Shown here: positions 2,502 to 8,083 of the stretch, in pieces
Layout: each line of letters opens with the position of its first letter
Position numbering within the stretch: the stretch's first letter is position 1
Source of the DNA: a virus
Taxonomy: Duplodnaviria; Heunggongvirae; Uroviricota; Caudoviricetes
Direction: 5' to 3' (one strand)
DNA length: 8,083 nt
Virus record (IMG/VR): IMGVR_UViG_2695420847_000016
Coordinates: 1 to 8,083 of that record
The notes under the pieces: generated by a model
Database searches by the model: none
What the model was told of the DNA's origin: nothing
What the model saw: the letters and a program-made list of their open reading frames with translations, nothing else
Made by a program: the position numbers and the translations under genes

Positions 2502-2699
2502 ATGCTGAAACAGCAGGATATGACAGAAACCGCCAGAGTTGTGTTTGATGAATTAAGCGTCACCGAACCGGCGACAGTCGGGGAGATTGCGCAGAATACT
2601 TACCTTTCACGCGAACGCTGCCAGTTAATACTGACCCAGCTTGTTATGGCGGGTCTGGCAGACTATCAGTGCGGTTGTTACAGACGCCTTCAGTCCTGA
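2502..2699 (+). CDS. Small winged-helix DNA-binding protein, PapI/FaeA-like (65 aa)
   Basis: ATG 2502 has a GGAAAGGG purine tract upstream. The segment TVGEIAQNTYLSRERCQLILTQLVMAGLA resembles the PapI/FaeA recognition helix region. Only the last ~49 nt are repeated in the second module (4573-4621), so the intact gene is unique to module 1. Confidence 0.5.
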   Translation: MLKQQDMTETARVVFDELSVTEPATVGEIAQNTYLSRERCQLILTQLVMAGLADYQCGCYRRLQS

Positions 2700-2770
2700 A
2701 GGCTTTTTTATTTGTGGTAAATGGGCGGCTGGTGGGTGTTAGCGGCACCTGTCAGTCCTTTGCTTATGTG

Positions 2771-2801
2771 TTGATGATAATTTACCTTTTGGGGCTATAA
2801 T
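2771..2801 (+). promoter_or_regulatory. Candidate promoter for the AraC-family gene (TTGATG ... TATAAT, 19-bp spacer)
   Basis: Perfect -10 hexamer TATAAT at 2796-2801 and a TTGATG -35-like hexamer at 2771-2776. Spacing is suboptimal. The same motif is conserved in copy 2 at 4690-4720. Confidence 0.25.
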
Positions 2802-2836
2802 TGAACTAACCAATTGCTAATGAAAGTAAAATTATA

Positions 2837-3550
2837 ATGGTTGTTGTCTGTTCAGTTATCATGGTTTGCTCCCCAATTAATATTTTTCTTGAAAAGGATA
2901 CGTTGTCACTTAAGCCCGGCTCAGTCGTTCTGGCCACCAAATGCATCAGGGCGCTTTTCCTTATGCATTATGGCAAAGTTAAAATTTTCGATATAAACCA
3001 TTCCATAGTAAGTCAATATCTGGAAATTCAGCATAAGCTGACAAGAACTCATCTGACTGACGTTCCGCTTTATCTGTCACTGGAACCCAACAACCCTGCG
3101 TTGGCTGAGGCTTTAATTACCAGCCAGAGATTTTCCGGAGATACCACGGATATGTTTCTTATGATGGCATGCCTGTCGCTGTTTGAATCAGATGAACGGA
3201 TATTATTATTTTTAAGTGGATGTTTATCCAGTATAAGTACCAAAGTCAGGGCGATAATTCAGACAGATATATCAGCAAGCTGGACGCTTGGTGCGATTGC
3301 GTTACGCCTGCATATGAGTGAGAGTTTGTTAAAGATAAAACTGAAAAATGAAGGGCACATGTTCAGTCGCTTGTTGCTGGAAGAGCGGATGCGTGTTGCT
3401 GTGAATATGTTATGTTCCCGGCATGGATATGGACAGGCTGTAGCAGAAAAATGCGGTTATTCAAGCTGGTCCTACTTTATTTCTGTATTTCACCGCTATT
3501 ATGGCTTCCCGCCAGACAGATATGTATCCAGGCAAGGGCTTGATTATTGA
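2837..3550 (+). CDS. AraC/XylS-family transcriptional regulator (prophage-encoded, paralog 1)
   Basis: 237-aa ORF with a C-terminal double HTH typical of AraC family (WTLGAIALRLHMSESLL ... YGQAVAEKCGYSSWSYFISVFHRYYGFPPDRY). AT-rich. The start could instead be ATG 2861. Confidence 0.8.
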   Translation: MVVVCSVIMVCSPINIFLEKDTLSLKPGSVVLATKCIRALFLMHYGKVKIFDINHSIVSQYLEIQHKLTRTHLTDVPLYLSLEPNNPALAEALITSQRFSGDTTDMFLMMACLSLFESDERILLFLSGCLSSISTKVRAIIQTDISASWTLGAIALRLHMSESLLKIKLKNEGHMFSRLLLEERMRVAVNMLCSRHGYGQAVAEKCGYSSWSYFISVFHRYYGFPPDRYVSRQGLDY

Positions 3551-3578
3551 TTTTCATCTGATTATTATTTTTTGACCC

Positions 3579-3654
3579 GGCCCTTTAGCTCAGTGGTGAG
3601 AGCGAGCGACTCATAATCGCCAGGTCGCTGGTTCAAATCCAGCAAGGGCCACCA
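3579..3654 (+). tRNA. ileZ: tRNA-Ile2 (anticodon CAU, lysidine type), 76 nt with encoded CCA
   Basis: Cloverleaf built by hand: acceptor GGCCCTT/AAGGGCC, D-stem GCTC/GAGC, anticodon loop CTCATAA, T-loop TTCAAAT. Close to E. coli ileX rather than elongator tRNA-Met. The symbol is by analogy with the Stx-phage tRNA cluster. Confidence 0.8.
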
Positions 3655-3661
3655 TCACATA

Positions 3662-3738
3662 CCGCCATTAGCTCATCAGGAAAGAGCGCCAGCTTTCGAA
3701 GCTGGTTGCGCGGAGTTCGGGTCCCCGAAGGCGGTCCA
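3662..3738 (+). tRNA. argN: tRNA-Arg (anticodon UCG), copy with stem and T-loop irregularities
   Basis: Anticodon loop TTTCGAA between the CCAGC/GCTGG stem. It carries an A-A mismatch in the acceptor stem, an A-C mismatch in the T-stem, and T-loop TTCGGGT (G at the usually conserved A58). It may be impaired. The symbol is by analogy only. Confidence 0.6.
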
Positions 3739-3751
3739 TTATCTGTATCCT

Positions 3752-3828
3752 GCGTTGTTAGCTCAGCCGGACAGAGCAATTGCCTTCTAAGCAATCGGTC
3801 ACTGGTTCGAATCCAGTACAACGCGCCA
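3752..3828 (+). tRNA. argO: tRNA-Arg (anticodon UCU), canonical copy
   Basis: Acceptor GCGTTGT/ACAACGC, anticodon loop CTTCTAA, T-arm ACTGG-TTCGAAT-CCAGT, encoded CCA. Resembles E. coli argU-type tRNA. Confidence 0.85.
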
Positions 3829-3842
3829 CACTTATTTTCCCT

Positions 3843-3868
3843 GGCTCGCTTTTGCGGGCCTTTTTTTT
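3843..3868 (+). terminator. Intrinsic terminator after tRNA cluster 1
   Basis: GGCTCGC-TTTT-GCGGGCC hairpin (one G-U pair) followed by a run of 8 T. Confidence 0.6.
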
Positions 3869-3933
3869 AAATATCTCACAATTCAGGCGGTTGACTGTTG
3901 TCTGGTTTGCGGGGAGTTTGTTAAAAGAAACTG

Positions 3934-4041
3934 GCATGGTGAATCCCCCTGTGCGGAGGGGCGATCAGCAACCAGGTATATGGGATAATCGCGGATTCAG
4001 GTGCTGATACTGAATTCACCGGGAGGCACCCGGCACCATGC
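3934..4041. repeat. 108-bp dyad-symmetric element, copy 1 (100% identical to 6548-6655)
   Basis: Base-by-base comparison shows the two copies are identical. Ends are inverted repeats GCATGGTG...CACCATGC, with internal inverted repeats GGTGAAT/ATTCACC and CCCCT/AGGGG. Flanking sequences are only loosely similar. Confidence 0.8.
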
Positions 4042-4101
4042 TTTGCCACAAAAGTGTTGTTTCTGTTTTTCTCAAACTATCATCGTTATCCCTTTATTTC
4101 C

Positions 4102-4128
4102 GGCTGCGCATGGCGTGGCCTTTTTTTT
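4102..4128 (+). terminator. Intrinsic terminator upstream of the nanS-p fragment
   Basis: GGCTGCGC-ATG-GCGTGGCC hairpin with two wobble pairs, followed by 8 T. A related hairpin recurs at 6800-6825. Confidence 0.45.
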
Positions 4129-4214
4129 ACGACCAGCCACTGGCAGATGGCCATCCTGTAATTTGATTCCGGTTCCGGCTTTTTAACTCTGTTCCTGTAC
4201 ACGGGAGAAATTCG

Positions 4215-4739
4215 ATGTCGATTAAACATTATGATGTTGTCAGGGCGGCGTCGCCGTCAGACCTTGCGGAAAAGCTGACACATAAACTGAAAGAGGGCTG
4301 GCAGCCGTTTGGTAGTCCGGTGGCCATAACCCCTTATACCCTGATGCAGGCGATTGCAGCAGAAGGTGATGTGGTGGTCAGTGGTGCAACTGAGCCGGAG
4401 TGGTACTACGTCATCGTACTGGCCGGGCAGTCCAATGCCATGGCTTACGGTGAAGGGCTTCCGCTGCCGGATTCATACGATGCTCCGGATCCGCGTATTA
4501 AACAGCTGGCGCGCCGCAGTACAGTGACGCCGGGTGGGGCTGCCTGCAGATATAACGATATTATTCCGGCACGGGTCTGGCAGACTATCAGTGCGGTTGT
4601 TACAGACGCCTTCAGTCCTGAAGGCTTTTTATTTGTGGTGAATGGGCGGCTGGTGGGGGGGCGACACCTGTCAGTCCTTTGCTTATGTGTTGATGATAAT
4701 TTACCTTTTGGGGCTATAATTGAGCTAACCAATTGCTAA
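4215..4739 (+). pseudogene. nanS: 5' fragment (about 119 codons) of a nanS-p-type sialate O-acetylesterase gene fused out of frame to the edge of module copy 2
   Basis: The N-terminal sequence is near-identical to the ORFs at 6922 and 7548 up to ...RYNDIIPA (through nt 4570). From 4573 the DNA is the repeat also found at 2651 onward, so the ORF tail (RVWQTISAVV...) is read-through of sequence that is noncoding or in another frame in copy 1. Confidence 0.6.
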
Positions 4740-4755
4740 TGAAAGTAAAATTATA

Positions 4756-5469
4756 ATGGCTGTTGTCTGTTCAGTTATCATGGTTTGCTCCCCAATTAAT
4801 ATTTTTCTTGAAAAGGATACGTTGTCACTTAAGCCAGGCTCAGTTGTTCTGGCCACCAAATGCATCAGGGAGCTTTTCCTTATGCATTATGGCAAAGTTA
4901 AAATTGTCGATATAAGCGAATCCGTCGTAAGTCAATATCTGGAAAGTCAGCATAAGCTGACGAGGACTCGTCTGACTGACATTCCGCTTTACCTGTTGCT
5001 GGAACCCAACAATCCTGCGTTGGCTGCGGCTTTAATTACCAGCCAGGGATTTTCCGGAGAGGCCACGGATATGTTTCTTATGATGGCCTGCCTGTCTCTG
5101 TTTGAAACAGATGAACGGATGTCATTGTTTTTAAGTGGATGTTTATCCAGCATAAGTGCCAAAGTCAGGGCGATAATTCAGACAGATATATCAGCAAGCT
5201 GGACGCTTGGTGCGATTGCTCTACAGTTGCATATGAGTGAGAGTTTGTTAAAGACAAAACTGAAAAATGAAGGGGGCATGTTCAGTCGCTTGTTGCTGGA
5301 AGAGCGGATGCGTGTTGCTGTAAATATGTTATGTTCCCGGCATGGATATGGACAGGCTATAGCAGAAAAATGCGGTTATTCAAGCAGGTCCTACTTTATT
5401 TCTGTATTTCACCGCTATTATGGCTTCCCGCCAGACAGATATGTATCCAGGCAAGGGCTTGATTATTGA
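4756..5469 (+). CDS. AraC/XylS-family transcriptional regulator (paralog 2)
   Basis: 237 aa, same length as paralog 1, with 23 amino-acid differences by manual alignment. 17 of these fall in the N-terminal 135 residues. Confidence 0.8.
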   Translation: MAVVCSVIMVCSPINIFLEKDTLSLKPGSVVLATKCIRELFLMHYGKVKIVDISESVVSQYLESQHKLTRTRLTDIPLYLLLEPNNPALAAALITSQGFSGEATDMFLMMACLSLFETDERMSLFLSGCLSSISAKVRAIIQTDISASWTLGAIALQLHMSESLLKTKLKNEGGMFSRLLLEERMRVAVNMLCSRHGYGQAIAEKCGYSSRSYFISVFHRYYGFPPDRYVSRQGLDY

Positions 5470-5497
5470 TTTTCATCTGATTATTATTTTTTGGCTC

Positions 5498-5573
5498 GGC
5501 CCTTTAGCTCAGTGGTGAGAGCGAGCGACTCATAATCGCCAGGTCGCTGGTTCAAATCCAGCAAGGGCCACCA
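5498..5573 (+). tRNA. ileZ: tRNA-Ile2 (anticodon CAU), second copy
   Basis: Identical in sequence to 3579-3654. Confidence 0.8.
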
Positions 5574-5582
5574 TATTACATA

Positions 5583-5659
5583 CCGCTATTAGCTCATCGG
5601 GACAGAGCGCCAGCCTTCGAAGCTGGCTGCGCGGGGTTCAAGTCCCCGATGGCGGTCCA
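5583..5659 (+). tRNA. argN: tRNA-Arg (anticodon UCG), canonical copy
   Basis: Acceptor CCGCTAT/ATGGCGG (one G-U pair), anticodon loop CTTCGAA, T-arm CGGGG-TTCAAGT-CCCCG fully paired, encoded CCA. Confidence 0.75.
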
Positions 5660-5672
5660 TTATCAGCATCAT

Positions 5673-5749
5673 GCGTTGTTAGCTCAGTCGGACAGAGCAA
5701 TTGCCTTCTAAGCAATCGGTCAGTGGTTAGACTCCACTACAACGCGCCA
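5673..5749 (+). tRNA. argO: tRNA-Arg (anticodon UCU), copy with atypical T-loop
   Basis: Same acceptor and anticodon arm as 3752-3828, but the T-arm is AGTGG-TTAGACT-CCACT. The stem change is compensatory; the loop has A in place of the conserved C56. Confidence 0.65.
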
Positions 5750-5762
5750 CACTTATTTTCCA

Positions 5763-5786
5763 GGCTCGCTTCGGCGGGCCTTTTTT
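5763..5786 (+). terminator. Intrinsic terminator after tRNA cluster 2
   Basis: GGCTCGC-TTCG-GCGGGCC hairpin followed by TTTTTT. Confidence 0.6.
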
Positions 5787-5918
5787 GTATCTGCGCCACG
5801 CCCGGCGCATATCAACCACAGAGCCTTTCGGGGGTGAGCTTACGGAGTGGTCAGTGTGACTTTCTCTGTGGGCAGATCGCTCCCGGGCGTTGGCTCACCC
5901 ACCCAAAGGAACGTCACG

Positions 5919-6350
5919 ATGTTTGGAATCTTCAAAAAGAAAACCCGCAGAGCGGCAGCGGAAATTAAAAAGTTTGAGAAACGCGATCTGGCACAGGCGG
6001 TGATTAACGCTGCATACCTGGTGGCCTATGCAGATGGTGAATGCGAGGCATCCGAGAAAGCGAAGATCGAACAGGTCTTACGTAATCAGCCTGCGTTGTC
6101 TGCGTTTACCTCGGAAATTAATGCGATTAGCGCAACCATTATCGGTCAGCTGGATACCAATTTTAAAATTGGTCGTCGTGCCGCGTTACGCGAGATTGAG
6201 GATGTGAAACACGATACGCGTGAAGCGGAAGATGTGCTGGATGTGGCGGTGGCCATTGCGGAGGCAGACGGCGAAATTGAGCCGGAAGAGCGCAAGGTGC
6301 TGGAAGAGATTGCCGGTGTTCTGGGTCTTCGTCTGGAGAATCACCTGTGA
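5919..6350 (+). CDS. TerB-family (tellurite-resistance TerB-like) protein, 143 aa
   Basis: ATG 5919 has AAAGGA 8 nt upstream; the track start GTG 5847 is probably not used. Two acidic DG-containing repeats (AYADGECEASEKAKIEQVL and AEADGEIEPEERKVLEEIAGVLGL) match the layout of plasmid TerB as I remember it. Confidence 0.7.
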   Translation: MFGIFKKKTRRAAAEIKKFEKRDLAQAVINAAYLVAYADGECEASEKAKIEQVLRNQPALSAFTSEINAISATIIGQLDTNFKIGRRAALREIEDVKHDTREAEDVLDVAVAIAEADGEIEPEERKVLEEIAGVLGLRLENHL

Positions 6351-6514
6351 CGGTAAAACTGCGCCTGGCTGTGGCTGCACTCCTGCTGTTTCTGGTGGTG
6401 ATGGTGGATCTCACCAGCAGAATCATGTCGGTGCTGGCGGATGGGGTGCTGGTCTGCGGCATTGTGGTATTGCTGTGGCCGGTGATAAAAAGAAACAGCC
6501 TGCATAATGCTTGA
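6347..6514 (+). CDS. Hypothetical small hydrophobic protein (about 55 aa, two predicted membrane-spanning segments), translationally coupled to the TerB-like gene
   Basis: Not in the ORF track. GTG 6347 overlaps the TerB stop (GTGA) with GGAGA 7 nt upstream; an alternative start is ATG 6401. The frame runs to TGA 6512-6514 and encodes ...LRLAVAALLLFLVVMVDLTSRIMSVLADGVLVCGIVVLLWPVIKRNSLHNA. Confidence 0.35.
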   Translation: MTVKLRLAVAALLLFLVVMVDLTSRIMSVLADGVLVCGIVVLLWPVIKRNSLHNA

Positions 6515-6547
6515 TTTTTTTGTTTGCTGTTTATTAAAAACACTTCT

Positions 6548-6655
6548 GCATGGTGAATCCCCCTGTGCGGAGGGGCGATCAGCAACCAGGTATATGGGAT
6601 AATCGCGGATTCAGGTGCTGATACTGAATTCACCGGGAGGCACCCGGCACCATGC
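6548..6655. repeat. 108-bp dyad-symmetric element, copy 2 (100% identical to 3934-4041)
   Basis: See copy 1. It lies 267 bp upstream of the nanS-p start at 6922. Confidence 0.8.
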
Positions 6656-6680
6656 AAGAAAAAGAATGTGCATGCAAACA

Positions 6681-6706
6681 TGCCCCTCTCCGGAGGGGCA
6701 TTTTTT
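6681..6706 (+). terminator. Intrinsic terminator
   Basis: TGCCCCTC-TCCG-GAGGGGCA hairpin (8 bp) followed by TTTTTT. Confidence 0.6.
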
Positions 6707-6712
6707 ATGGGT

Positions 6713-6737
6713 AAAAAATGCCCGAATGGGTTCGGGC
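6713..6737 (-). terminator. Possible minus-strand intrinsic terminator facing the one at 6681-6706
   Basis: GCCCGAA-TGGG-TTCGGGC hairpin with AAAAAAT on its 5' side on the + strand, which is a T-run on the minus strand. No minus-strand gene is evident to its right. Confidence 0.3.
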
Positions 6738-6799
6738 AATAGCATGAGATACTGATATTGTTGTGTTGTTATCGTGTGGATTTTAACCAGGGTTTATCA

Positions 6800-6825
6800 G
6801 GCTGCGCAACTGCGTGGCCTTTTTT
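6800..6825 (+). terminator. Intrinsic terminator in the nanS-p leader
   Basis: GGCTGCGC-AACT-GCGTGGCC hairpin followed by TTTTTT; a diverged homolog of the hairpin at 4102-4128. Confidence 0.5.
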
Positions 6826-6866
6826 CATTTCTTGGGCTGTAGTCCCCGTGTGTCATTCAGGCTTCC

Positions 6867-7492
6867 GGACTACAGCCCACTCCATATCTGATTTAATACA
6901 CTATCCCGGCCGGGAGGAATAATGACATTTAAACATTATGATGTTGTCAGGGCGGCGTCGCCGTCAGACCTTGCGGAAAAGCTGACACACAAACTGAAAG
7001 AGGGCTGGCAGCCGTTTGGTAGTCCGGTGGCCATAACCCCTTATACCCTGATGCAGGCGATTACAGCAGAAGGTGATGTGGTGGTCAGTGGTGCAACTGA
7101 GCCGGATTGGTACTACGTCATCGTACTGGCCGGGCAGTCCAATGCCATGGCTTACGGTGAAGGGCTTCCGCTGCCGGATTCATACGATGCTCCGGATCCG
7201 CGTATTAAACAGCTGGCGCGCCGCAGTACAGTGACGCCGGGTGGGGCTGCCTGCAGATATAACGATATTATTCCGGCCGACCACTGCCTGCATGATGTGC
7301 AGGATATGAGTACGCTGAATCATCCGAAGGCAGACCTGAGCAAAGGGCAGTACGGCTGTGTCGGCCAGGGCTTACATATTGCCAAAAAACTGCTTCCGTA
7401 TATCCCGAATAACGCGGGGATCCTGCTGGTACCATGCTGTCGTGGTGGTTCGGCATTCACCCAGGGCGCGGAGGGGACATTCAGTGCGGACA
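6867..7492. repeat. Tandem duplication unit 1 (626 bp: 55 bp of leader plus the first ~190 codons of nanS-p)
   Basis: The sequence from 6867 recurs from 7493 with a constant offset of 626 bp to the window end. At least four single-base differences were seen, for example at 7205/7831, 7250/7876, 7268/7894 and 7396/8022. Confidence 0.85.
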
Positions 7493-7548
7493 GGACTACA
7501 GCCCACTCCATATCTGATTTAATACACTATCCCGGCCGGGAGGAATAA
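6922..7548 (+). pseudogene. nanS: nanS-p-type sialate O-acetylesterase, N-terminal 190 codons ended by the tandem-duplication junction (208-codon ORF)
   Basis: GGGAGGAATA lies before ATG 6922. The protein has a DUF1737-like N-terminus and the start of an esterase domain with a GQSN motif (VLAGQSNAMAYGEG). After ...TFSAD the frame runs into the duplicated leader (RTTAHSISDLIHYPGREE, stop). Confidence 0.55.
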
Positions 7549-8083
7549 TGACATTTAAACATTATGATGTTGTCAGGGCGGCGTCGCCGTCAGACCTTGC
7601 GGAAAAGCTGACACACAAACTGAAAGAGGGCTGGCAGCCGTTTGGTAGTCCGGTGGCCATAACCCCTTATACCCTGATGCAGGCGATTACAGCAGAAGGT
7701 GATGTGGTGGTCAGTGGTGCAACTGAGCCGGATTGGTACTACGTCATCGTACTGGCCGGGCAGTCCAATGCCATGGCTTACGGTGAAGGGCTTCCGCTGC
7801 CGGATTCATACGATGCTCCGGATCCGCGCATTAAACAGCTGGCGCGCCGCAGTACAGTTACGCCGGGTGGGGCTGCATGCAGATATAACGATATTATTCC
7901 GGCCGACCACTGCCTGCATGATGTGCAGGATATGAGTACGCTGAATCATCCGAAGGCAGACCTGAGCAAAGGGCAGTACGGCTGTGTCGGCCAGGGCTTA
8001 CATATTGCCAAAAAACTGCTCCCGTATATCCCGAATAACGCGGGGATCCTGCTGGTACCATGCTGTCGTGGTGGTTCGGCATT
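7493..8083. repeat. Tandem duplication unit 2 (partial; runs off the window)
   Basis: See unit 1. Confidence 0.85.
7548..8083 (+). CDS. nanS: nanS-p-type sialate O-acetylesterase (prophage paralog), 3' end outside the window
   Basis: ATG 7548 overlaps the TAA of the truncated copy (TAATGA). The reading frame is open to the window end, and the sequence is ~99% identical to 6922-7457. Confidence 0.7.
   Translation, partial: MTFKHYDVVRAASPSDLAEKLTHKLKEGWQPFGSPVAITPYTLMQAITAEGDVVVSGATEPDWYYVIVLAGQSNAMAYGEGLPLPDSYDAPDPRIKQLARRSTVTPGGAACRYNDIIPADHCLHDVQDMSTLNHPKADLSKGQYGCVGQGLHIAKKLLPYIPNNAGILLVPCCRGGSA

Follow-up and report, generated by a model that had tools for sequence, protein, structure and literature searches.

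The locus

The DNA considered here is IMG/VR virus record IMGVR_UViG_2695420847_000016, termed the window below (the whole stretch analysed, 8,083 bp). It contains two copies of a 108-bp element with dyad symmetry, which an earlier note, made from the sequence alone, had singled out upstream of nanS-p genes. The element is almost certainly the structured 5′ domain of a small RNA (sRNA) gene of the STnc100 family, and the window has two such genes.

The window is the complete contig CYAO01000067.1 of draft assembly GCA_001283385.1. A gene for the antiterminator Q (PF06530) is found at 865-1245, tRNA genes at 3579-3828 and 5498-5749, and DUF1737 esterase reading frames begin at 4215 and 6922. 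A RefSeq genome (L001) and homologous loci show the same gene order. The earlier note placed the element downstream of a terminator. This is the case for copy 1, which follows a terminator at 3843-3860 behind tRNA genes, but copy 2 comes directly after a DUF3927 gene and has no predicted terminator before it.

A repeat search of the window returns the element as a two-copy family of 108 nt with 100% identity, i.e. 3934-4041 and 6548-6655 agree at 108/108 bases. The flanks, on the other hand, show only 62% identity over 60 nt upstream and 50% over 60 nt downstream in a global alignment, and the 5′ regions of the neighbouring nanS-p genes are 84% identical. The reported contrast between identical copies and diverged flanks is therefore real, and it is far beyond chance.

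Identity of the element

An Rfam scan, one of the checks proposed in the earlier note, assigns both copies to RF02076 (STnc100, ‘Gammaproteobacterial sRNA STnc100’), whose curated gathering cut-off is 47 bits. The match around copy 2 (6519-6712) scores 142.7 bits (E = 2e-32) and aligns over model positions 1-206, including a terminator hairpin at 6680-6701. The match around copy 1 (3905-4077) scores 108.1 bits (E = 1.5e-23), but here the full model is followed only partly; 24 terminator positions are skipped, and a different terminator is present at 4102-4120. A small RNA was one of four roles that the note had considered, and it is the correct one.

A copy-number survey, also suggested in the note, shows the 108-mer to be common. 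At approximately 90% identity or better it is found at 7,722 places in 2,834 of 5,426 complete E. coli genomes, with a maximum of 12 per genome. It is also present in Stx1, Stx2 and other temperate phages, and the STnc100 family as such is likewise detected in Stx1 and Stx2 phages. The note had allowed that its proposal would fail if the element turned out to be a widespread intergenic repeat of known type without positional connection to nanS-p, and as regards novelty this is essentially what is found. The element is not novel because it belongs to a family that is already catalogued and experimentally detected.

Homologues have been documented in enterohaemorrhagic E. coli (EHEC). Tree et al. 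describe Hfq-crosslinked sRNAs that form ‘dyads’ and that lie, in at least eight Sakai prophages, between late promoter and lysis genes (PMC4104026, PMC7873438). Among these are AsxR with EcOnc27 downstream of stx2B, and AgvB, which is antisense to EcOnc06 (PMC4104026, PMC7873438). EcOnc27 is the same as sRNA103 of strain EDL933 and overlaps an Infernal annotation of STnc100 (PMC12711010). EDL933 has 11 STnc100 copies, all of which are transcribed; one was confirmed by Northern blot, and some have ribosome footprints (PMC5331693). Expression, Hfq binding and Northern detection have thus been reported for homologues (PMC4104026, PMC5331693, PMC8550237, PMC7873438). The evidence for Hfq binding comes from crosslinking and analysis of cDNA (Hfq-CRAC) together with Northern blots (PMC4104026, PMC7873438), and for PasD from the ligation and sequencing of interacting RNAs (RIL-seq; PMC8550237). 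PasD1 and PasD2 of enteropathogenic E. coli (EPEC) have been concluded to be structural homologues of STnc100 that share a common ancestor with it (Zhu, Shabalina, Storz; bioRxiv 10.64898/2026.05.13.724894).

An AgvB gene (RF02702) abuts copy 2 in the window. It scores 96.5 bits against a cut-off of 56 and matches the consensus at 62/62 positions. AgvB and EcOnc06 form one of the published dyads (PMC7873438). The same spot (6713-6774) also scores 43 bits for AsxR, which is under the AsxR cut-off.

RNA secondary structure

Homologues were gathered by two pattern scans, which yielded 120 loci in IMG/VR and about 80 true hits in a set of one genome per species; the search patterns required parts of the hairpins P2 and P5 described below. 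All true hits are in Enterobacterales (Escherichia, Shigella, Salmonella, Klebsiella, Raoultella, Enterobacter, Leclercia, Kosakonia, Pluralibacter, Atlantibacter, Cedecea, Trabulsiella, Superficieibacter, Pantoea, Erwinia and Rosenbergiella), and another ~56 pattern matches in unrelated phyla are chance hits. The 160 distinct cores were reduced to 92 dissimilar representatives, 89-90 of which entered the alignments, from ~15 enterobacterial genera.

As shown by comparison of these sequences, the STnc100 RNA is predicted to fold as a five-helix junction, with covarying helices P1, P3 and P4, a loop-loop pseudoknot, and the invariant hairpins P2 and P5 (Table 1). The structure tested was that read from the window sequence, and the alignment was made with plain MAFFT and not fitted to structure. 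The whole structure is 81.3% paired, as against 71.5% in shuffled alignments (0/500 shuffles were as high) and 40-48% when partners are slid by 1-3 columns. The covariation score is 0.338, versus 0.157 shuffled and 0.08-0.13 slid. The minimum free energy (MFE) fold of the single core sequence also contains P1-P5, at -45.9 kcal/mol (z = -3.1); that of the opposite strand has -42.2 kcal/mol (z = -2.4).

The terminal inverted repeat GCATGGTG/CACCATGC noted earlier is genuine and constitutes P1. In 90 homologues all 8 of its 8 pairs show compensatory changes (GC/AU/UA/CG). P3 is 95% paired and its third pair covaries (GC 44, AU 17, UA 11, UG 3, CG 2). The outer five pairs of P4 are 98% paired, with compensatory changes in 5/5. 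The covariation analysis that the note had called for thus finds compensatory changes in P1, P3 and P4. A G.U pair stands at the second position of P4 in 48/90 sequences, and therefore the + strand is the one that acts as RNA.

P2 and P5 have a different character. P2 corresponds to the CCCC../..GGGG hairpin of the note, which is confirmed; its positions never vary in the 89-90 representatives, and its pairing register is ambiguous. Parts of P2 that lie beyond the search pattern (GCGG, GGGGC) are likewise invariant, and the bases flanking P5 (ACC..GGC), also outside the pattern, are similarly conserved. The proposed pairing GGTGAAT/ATTCACC does not survive comparison; it occurs in this allele only and is lost in homologues, where AAT stays unpaired as an invariant junction and ATTC forms part of the 3′ arm of P4. 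The extended stem-loop envisaged at first is thus right in outline, with the terminal repeat as its closing helix, but the real fold is a five-helix junction with a pseudoknot.

The pseudoknot joins the strand that follows the 5′ strand of P3 to the loop of P4. Homologues show different complementary pairs at the same two places: CCAGUC/GACUGG, GCUAG/CUAGC, CCAGAC/GUCUGG, UUUGAUC/GAUCAAA, AAGCCAG/CUGGCUU, AAGUCACA/UGUGACUU and CAGCUA/UAGCUG. When P4 and the pseudoknot were parsed automatically from MFE folds, several lineages came out wrongly assigned; this procedure was replaced by a dedicated optimiser and then by an assignment of P4 made blind to the pseudoknot. With the latter, at least 6 contiguous base-pairs form in 61% of 90 sequences; the corresponding values are 10.6% when loops are non-cognate and ~9% when the 5′ strands are shuffled. 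Taken singly, 32/90 sequences reach an empirical p of 0.05 or less, where 4.5 would be expected.

RNAalifold does not predict pseudoknots. The consensus structure given in the preprint on PasD (bioRxiv 10.64898/2026.05.13.724894) was made with that program, and the pseudoknot and P3 are, as far as can be seen, additions to the known STnc100 structure.

Table 1. Positions in the window of the two STnc100 units, of the helices of their RNA, and of the adjacent AgvB gene
Feature	Position	Strand	Basis or remark
Copy 1, 108-nt structured core (5′ domain of STnc100-family sRNA)	3934-4041	+	100% repeat; inside Rfam match 3905-4077
Copy 2, same core, every base identical	6548-6655	+	inside Rfam match 6519-6712
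P1, 5′ strand GCAUGGUG, 3′ strand CACCAUGC	3934-3941 pairs 4034-4041; 6548-6555 pairs 6648-6655	+	90% paired in plain MAFFT alignment
P2 hairpin: C run, loop U-N-N-GCGG-N, G run (CCCCCUGUGCGGAGGG)	3945-3960	+	invariant across genera
P3, 5′ strand G-C-G, 3′ strand C-G-C	3961-3963 pairs 3990-3992	+	encloses pseudoknot strand and hypervariable insert
Pseudoknot, AUCAGCA with UGCUGAU (P4 loop)	3964-3970 pairs 4002-4008	+	complementary pairs in homologues
Hypervariable insert	3971-3989	+	15-50 nt in homologues; no conserved sequence or length
P4 hairpin GGAUUCAG-guGCUGAUa-CUGAAUUC	3993-4017	+	outer 5 pairs covary
P5 hairpin CCGGG-AGGCA-CCCGG, with Shine-Dalgarno-like GGAGG	4019-4033	+	invariant in 90 representatives
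Copy 1 promoter-like sequence, extended -10 TGtTAAAAG	3919-3927	+	read from sequence; 6 nt before first P1 base; by homology
Copy 2 promoter-like sequence, -35 TTGATT (6511-6516), 18-nt spacer, -10 TAAAAA (6535-6540)	6511-6540	+	read from sequence; putative start ~6547-6548
Copy 1 3′ module: 60-nt U/C-rich linker, terminator GGCUGCGCAUGGCGUGGCC (4102-4120), U tract	4042-4128	+	terminator scan; PasD1/2 module type
Copy 2 3′ module: linker AAGAAAAAGAAUG... (four A-R-N triplets), terminator (6680-6701), U tract	6656-6707	+	sequence, Rfam, terminator scan
AgvB anti-sRNA gene (anti-GcvB)	6713-6774	-	RF02702; convergent with copy 2, terminators abut

Transcription units

Each core appears to be the beginning of its own transcription unit. 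Across 175 distinct homologous loci, TANNNT hexamers are most frequent at one fixed spacing, with their end ~4 nt ahead of the 8-nt P1 window, and a TTGACA-like -35 sequence is often found 17 nt upstream of it. The corresponding hexamer of copy 1 ends 6 nt before P1. The putative promoter of copy 2 was missed by a consensus scan because its -10 lacks the final T. Published RNA-seq data for PasD1 place its 5′ end (NC_011601:1060260) at the first G of GCATGGTG and its 3′ end at the U tract of its terminator. An intrinsic terminator 10-40 nt after P1 is present in at least 82/175 loci in a strict scan, and in more by eye. By homology, the RNA of copy 1 would extend over ~3934-4128 (~195 nt) and that of copy 2 over ~6548-6707 (~160 nt).

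The 3′ modules of the two units differ. A-R-N repeats, as found in the linker of copy 2, are a motif for the distal face of Hfq (PMC4104026). The PasD1 terminator GGCUGCGCAUGGCGCGGCC is the same as the terminator after copy 1. The PasD-type terminator GGCTGCGCA..GCGTGGCC with its T run is found twice on the + strand of the window, at 4102-4128 after copy 1 and at 6799-6826 downstream of AgvB. The copy 1 locus looks like the copy 2 locus minus the STnc100 terminator and the AgvB segment.

Genomic context and origin of the identical copies

The earlier note linked the element to nanS-p. At homologous loci, what follows on the same strand is a nanS-type esterase (34), a lysozyme (29) or a holin (11 and 9). 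Since lysozyme and holin genes are about equally common downstream, a specific link to nanS-p is dropped; the nanS-p neighbourhood in the window is incidental. Upstream genes are DNA methylases (17), Q of family PF03589 (13), TerB (10) and another Q-like family (9). STnc100 is a family of lambda-like prophages of Enterobacterales, and what is constant in its context is the location between the Q antiterminator/late promoter and the lysis cassette, in many cases with phage tRNA genes and further sRNA genes nearby.

A homologous locus (L015) is instructive. A lambda-type Q gene ends at 1533, followed by a PR′ promoter with the lambda TAACGATGGG pause motif and tR′ at ~1600-1668. Three STnc100 units come after tR′ (1726-1835, 1987-2088 and 2238-2341); all have promoters of their own, and the first two have terminators as well. 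Because PR′ and tR′ are separate from and upstream of the three units, STnc100 is to be viewed as a moron-type unit inside the late operon, not as its leader.

Some genomes have 4-6 STnc100 units in a row at a prophage locus, interspersed with tRNA genes and isrI. Arrays of 3-6 cores were seen at L167, L199/L208/L215, L166/L188, L006, L010, L015 and L038, with isrI in L038 and L191. In the plasmid pAPP145_2 of Pantoea sp. App145 (L167, 1250-1990, - strand) three cores lie 120-150 nt apart, with one terminator after the third; array cores outside Pantoea each have their own promoter and terminator. A Pantoea plasmid (L157, ~2700-6750) has ~4 kb without an open reading frame (ORF) of at least 90 aa, but with two STnc100 hits and a tRNA gene. 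This stretch may be a larger non-coding RNA gene cluster.

How did two identical cores with different flanks come about? E. coli-type 108-nt cores in IMG/VR have alleles that are 0-6 bases from that of the window. The exact window allele is found there with three different combinations of promoter module and 3′ module, and at least three upstream types and at least three downstream types occur in most combinations. The identical core with diverged flanks reflects lambdoid mosaicism, with joints at the ends of a strongly constrained segment; strong constraint keeps the core the same, and recombination of lambdoid phages at its ends makes the flanks differ. Purifying selection on the RNA together with recombination or gene conversion suffices to explain the identity.

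The adjacency of the two copies is another matter. The window contains chained duplications: 2650-3840 resembles 4572-5761, and 6867-7492 equals 7493-8083 exactly. Duplication joints lie near 4571/4572 and 7492/7493, and a truncated nanS-p′ ORF (4215-4739) crosses the first. None of the 5,426 complete E. coli genomes is collinear with the window, and it is for this reason that a chimera is suspected; the best complete-genome match packs the 8.1 kb of the window into 5.4 kb at 96.9% identity. It is likely that the assembly fused two or more prophages of one strain in the window. That the two STnc100 copies adjoin each other is thus doubtful and may come from the assembly, but both loci are real and of common types. 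The natural order is illustrated by O145:H28 strain RM12581: Q, CPBP protease, a hypothetical gene, an AraC-type helix-turn-helix (HTH) gene, tRNA Ile/Arg/Arg, TerB, DUF3927, STnc100, AgvB, and the SASA (nanS-p) esterase.

A few other features of the window may be mentioned. The gap between Q and the CPBP-protease moron (1246-1390, +) is the expected site of PR′ and tR′ of this prophage. The two tRNA sets, both on the + strand, each consist of three genes (CAT, Arg-TCG and Arg-TCT), and each set is preceded by a gene for a 237-aa AraC-type HTH protein (2837-3550; 4756-5469). The CAT tRNA is called Met by ARAGORN and tRNA-Ile in the RefSeq annotation (ileZ type). The middle tRNA scores 42.9 bits in set 1, far below the 56 bits in set 2.

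Possible function

A two-module mechanism can tentatively be put forward, although we would stop short of calling it probable: the folded core would provide stability, and the 3′ tail would serve Hfq and targets. Each copy would be an independent ‘moron’ unit. Judging from homologues, a sigma-70 promoter would direct initiation at the first P1 base, transcription would end at an intrinsic terminator 20-90 nt beyond P1, and an RNA of 160-195 nt would be made in the lysogen. The RNA would act in trans with Hfq. The single-stranded 3′ linker beside the terminator may carry the Hfq-binding and target-pairing sequences, i.e. it would be an exchangeable tail, whereas the compact, nuclease-resistant 5′ domain would stabilize the RNA and perhaps have a second partner besides.

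Data on PasD provide the model for this division. In RIL-seq, the chimeras of PasD1 fall within its last ~50 nt, and the seed predicted for it, UGUGAG, is immediately 5′ of the terminator. The 3′ part is read as the pairing module because the RIL-seq contacts and the seed lie there. PasD abundance is unchanged in a delta-hfq strain, unlike that of PasA and PasB, and this fits a compact, nuclease-resistant 5′ domain. With the STnc100 unit, its fold and the two-module mechanism taken together, this is the explanation we favour, and on balance we regard it as probable.

It should be pointed out that a number of observations weigh against this explanation. On the side of structure, an alignment guided by structure, with gaps treated as N, gives 95.2% paired for the full model (72.4% in shuffles) and a covariation score of 0.511 (0.149 in shuffles, 0.04-0.08 with slid partners), but the P4 and pseudoknot registers were fitted per sequence, so that these numbers lean towards the model. 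In the plain MAFFT alignment the pseudoknot columns are only 52% paired, a figure that neither confirms nor refutes the pseudoknot, as these columns are out of register because loop lengths differ. The exact-base invariance of P2 and P5 is in part built in, since the search patterns required portions of both, and PasD1, which was found independently, has a changed P2 and a reduced P5. The predicted transcript ends of both copies rest on homologues. On the side of function, a 2022 survey places STnc100 among the most abundantly annotated sRNAs and lists its function as ‘-’ (PMC9029176), as does Rfam. Overexpression of sRNA103 altered fimZ and espA levels by a route that was not explained (PMC7873438). 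Finally, a plain scaffold role leaves two things unexplained, namely that P2 and P5 are invariant in sequence across ~15 genera while all other helices covary, and that copies can stand back to back, 120-150 nt apart, with no terminator between them.

Alternative explanations

The last two observations are accounted for by an alternative in which the 108-nt core is itself functional (aptamer-, decoy- or tRNA-mimic-like) and pairing by the 3′ tail with Hfq is separate or secondary. A conserved partner would recognize P2, P5 and the junction bases; it could be a protein, the ribosome via the GGAGG of P5, an RNase or a small molecule. We consider this the less likely course, yet it merits attention. 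P2 and P5 are fixed, in contrast to the free covariation of P1, P3, P4 and the pseudoknot, and the architecture is aptamer-like, i.e. a multi-helix junction with helices that abut without linkers and a loop-loop contact. In addition, the Pantoea cores stand in tandem on one transcript without terminators between them, up to 4-6 copies occur per prophage locus among tRNA genes, PasD abundance is Hfq-independent, and GGGAGGC is kept even in the diverged PasD. On the opposite side, there is no known partner and no direct support, and only generic late-region genes are consistently linked. The core has no Rfam riboswitch, ribozyme or tRNA family match at E of 1 or less, the terminator differs between lineages so there is no conserved expression platform, and the invariance of P2 and P5 is partly imposed by the search patterns. 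That the ~105-nt core forms a distinct class of structured RNA, which binds a conserved protein, ribosome or metabolite, is arrayed on one transcript in some genomes and carries the 3′ tail as a swappable Hfq/seed module, is a doubtful proposition.

The earlier note also considered a cis-acting role in the late transcript. The element might direct processing, stability or antitermination for nanS-p and the genes of the lysis cassette, or might be the PR′-tR′ leader itself. It is always on the late-operon strand, between Q and the lysis genes, and would be read through when Q is active, as is established for lambda. Such a role is nevertheless improbable. The units possess promoters and terminators of their own, discrete RNAs of 160-200 nt accumulate from homologues without induction, and the downstream gene varies. 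An antiterminator of the put type that read into lysis genes from a constitutive promoter would presumably kill the lysogen. The leader version (of the lambda 6S RNA/StxS type) is largely refuted; in the window Q ends at 1245, 2.7 kb before copy 1, and in L015 the PR′ with its TAACGATGGG pause motif and tR′ stand upstream of and apart from the three STnc100 units.

It is very unlikely that the element is a feature at the DNA level, such as a miniature mobile element, an ERIC-like (enterobacterial repetitive intergenic consensus) repeat, or a protein-binding or recombination site, in which RNA structure would be incidental. Terminal inverted repeats are present, genomes have up to 12 copies, mosaic joints coincide with the core ends, and GTGAATCCCC is common to the element and ERIC. 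However, compensatory changes maintain pairing in three helices and the pseudoknot, and G.U pairs are frequent on the + strand only (48/90 for one P4 pair), which double-stranded DNA would not select. There is no target-site duplication around either copy. The context is fixed, and the element is on the strand of the downstream lysis or esterase gene wherever a co-oriented one was identified (the survey covered co-oriented genes). The mobile-element and ERIC suggestions of the note are therefore unsupported. A miniature inverted-repeat transposable element is rejected on the lack of flanking duplication, the fixed context and an ‘inverted repeat’ that covaries as an RNA helix. ERIC/IRU is rejected because neither half of the central inverted repeat, which we take to be given by primer sequences ERIC1R and ERIC2, has a match in the element at up to 3 mismatches (0 matches for either half); only GTGAATCCCC is common. 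The core ends may still be passive recombination joints.

That the element encodes a small protein can virtually be dismissed: a 23-codon ORF from ATG 3936 (3936-4007, +) and a 42-codon ORF (4038-4166, +) exist in this allele, GGAGG lies 11 nt before the second ATG and some EDL933 copies have ribosome footprints, but both ATGs are gone in most homologues, where P1 reads GTGTGGTG, GCGGTG, GTGATG etc., substitutions track base-pairing and not codons, and the 42-codon ORF, whose ATG is in the P1 3′ strand, runs through the terminator. Both ORFs are probably spurious. The GGAGG of P5 could explain the footprints on some EDL933 copies.

Several other identities were examined and set aside. A riboswitch-like switch between P2 and the look-alike terminator GCCCCTCTCCGGAGGGGC does not hold as other lineages use unrelated terminators; P2 resembles the E. 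coli-type terminator, and riboswitch families in Rfam give no match over the element. Self-cleaving ribozymes (hepatitis delta virus (HDV)-like, twister, hammerhead) and riboswitch classes were compared by eye, and there is no Rfam match at E of 1 or less; the helix order is unlike that of HDV. As to tRNA or tmRNA, ARAGORN calls only six true tRNAs in the window, and no Rfam tRNA or tmRNA hit falls over the element at E of 1 or less. A type III toxin-antitoxin RNA array is suggested by the tandem copies, but the downstream genes vary (esterase, holin, lysozyme, small ORFs). The proposal of a specific nanS-p association is set aside on the same variety of downstream genes.

Significance

STnc100 is among the most abundantly annotated bacterial sRNA families (PMC9029176), and it adjoins Shiga-toxin genes. 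Two variants associated with haemolytic uraemic syndrome (HUS), 90 bp (T/C) and 103 bp (T deletion) after stx2B, have been placed ‘within the predicted sRNA’ (PMC12711010). We find that they fall in TTTGTTAAAAAAATTTC, just before P1 of the STnc100 copy of an Stx2 phage (L122 2484-2500, Stx2a phage WGPS2). The sequence suggests that both belong to the extended -10 and the discriminator of the promoter of this STnc100 copy.

The structural model can guide the choice of mutations, as it offers five helices, a pseudoknot that can be tested, two hairpins that do not vary and a 3′ module that can be separated. Conserved core and variable tail are, on this model, best treated as two functions for separate study. 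A more general point is that, in prophage DNA, exact copies with unlike flanks may be no more than a constrained RNA gene at mosaic joints, here further duplicated by a probably chimeric contig. The role of a widespread and highly structured prophage RNA beside toxin and lysis genes is of moderate interest.

Comparison with known systems

The core resembles the cloverleaf of a class II tRNA in having five helices in the same order with similar stems (6-9, 4, 3-4, 5-10 and 5 bp), in the last hairpin abutting the 3′ strand of the closing helix, in a GG in the loop of the second arm, and in copies found among phage tRNA genes. The element differs in that it has no anticodon loop, T loop (the last loop is 5 nt) or CCA end, and its third and fourth arms kiss. 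The resemblance is one of outline only.

Lambda 6S RNA and StxS are also abundant, short prophage transcripts that start in the late region and end at an intrinsic terminator, and StxS is Hfq-bound as well. In contrast, STnc100 units are not at PR′, have their own promoters, are downstream of tR′ (in L015), can be repeated, and have a conserved complex fold.

PasD1 and PasD2 (EPEC E2348/69; EcOnc13 in EHEC) are much closer. They share with the window copies the position, promoter type, P1, pseudoknot and plan of P4, and the 3′ module of copy 1 is itself PasD-type (U/C-rich linker and GGCUGCGCAUGGCGYGGCC terminator). On the STnc100 model PasD1 reaches only 37.7 bits; it has an altered P2 (CCUCC..GGAGG) and a P5 cut down to a 3-bp stem, GCG-GGAGG-CGC. 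The predicted PasD seed UGUGAG is absent from both window copies.

The closest likeness is to STnc100 itself (EcOnc06, EcOnc27, sRNA103). Both copies have covariance-model scores far above the cut-off, and copy 2 aligns end to end with its terminator. The context, downstream of Q, tRNAs or stx and upstream of nanS-p or lysis genes, is that of the family. There is no essential difference; copy 1 has a PasD-type 3′ module instead of the usual family terminator. The structure line of Rfam STnc100, as displayed by cmscan, has no pseudoknot and draws the middle region unlike the P3/P4 pseudoknot arrangement described here. With respect to the AgvB/EcOnc06 dyad, copy 2 has a convergent AgvB exactly as published.

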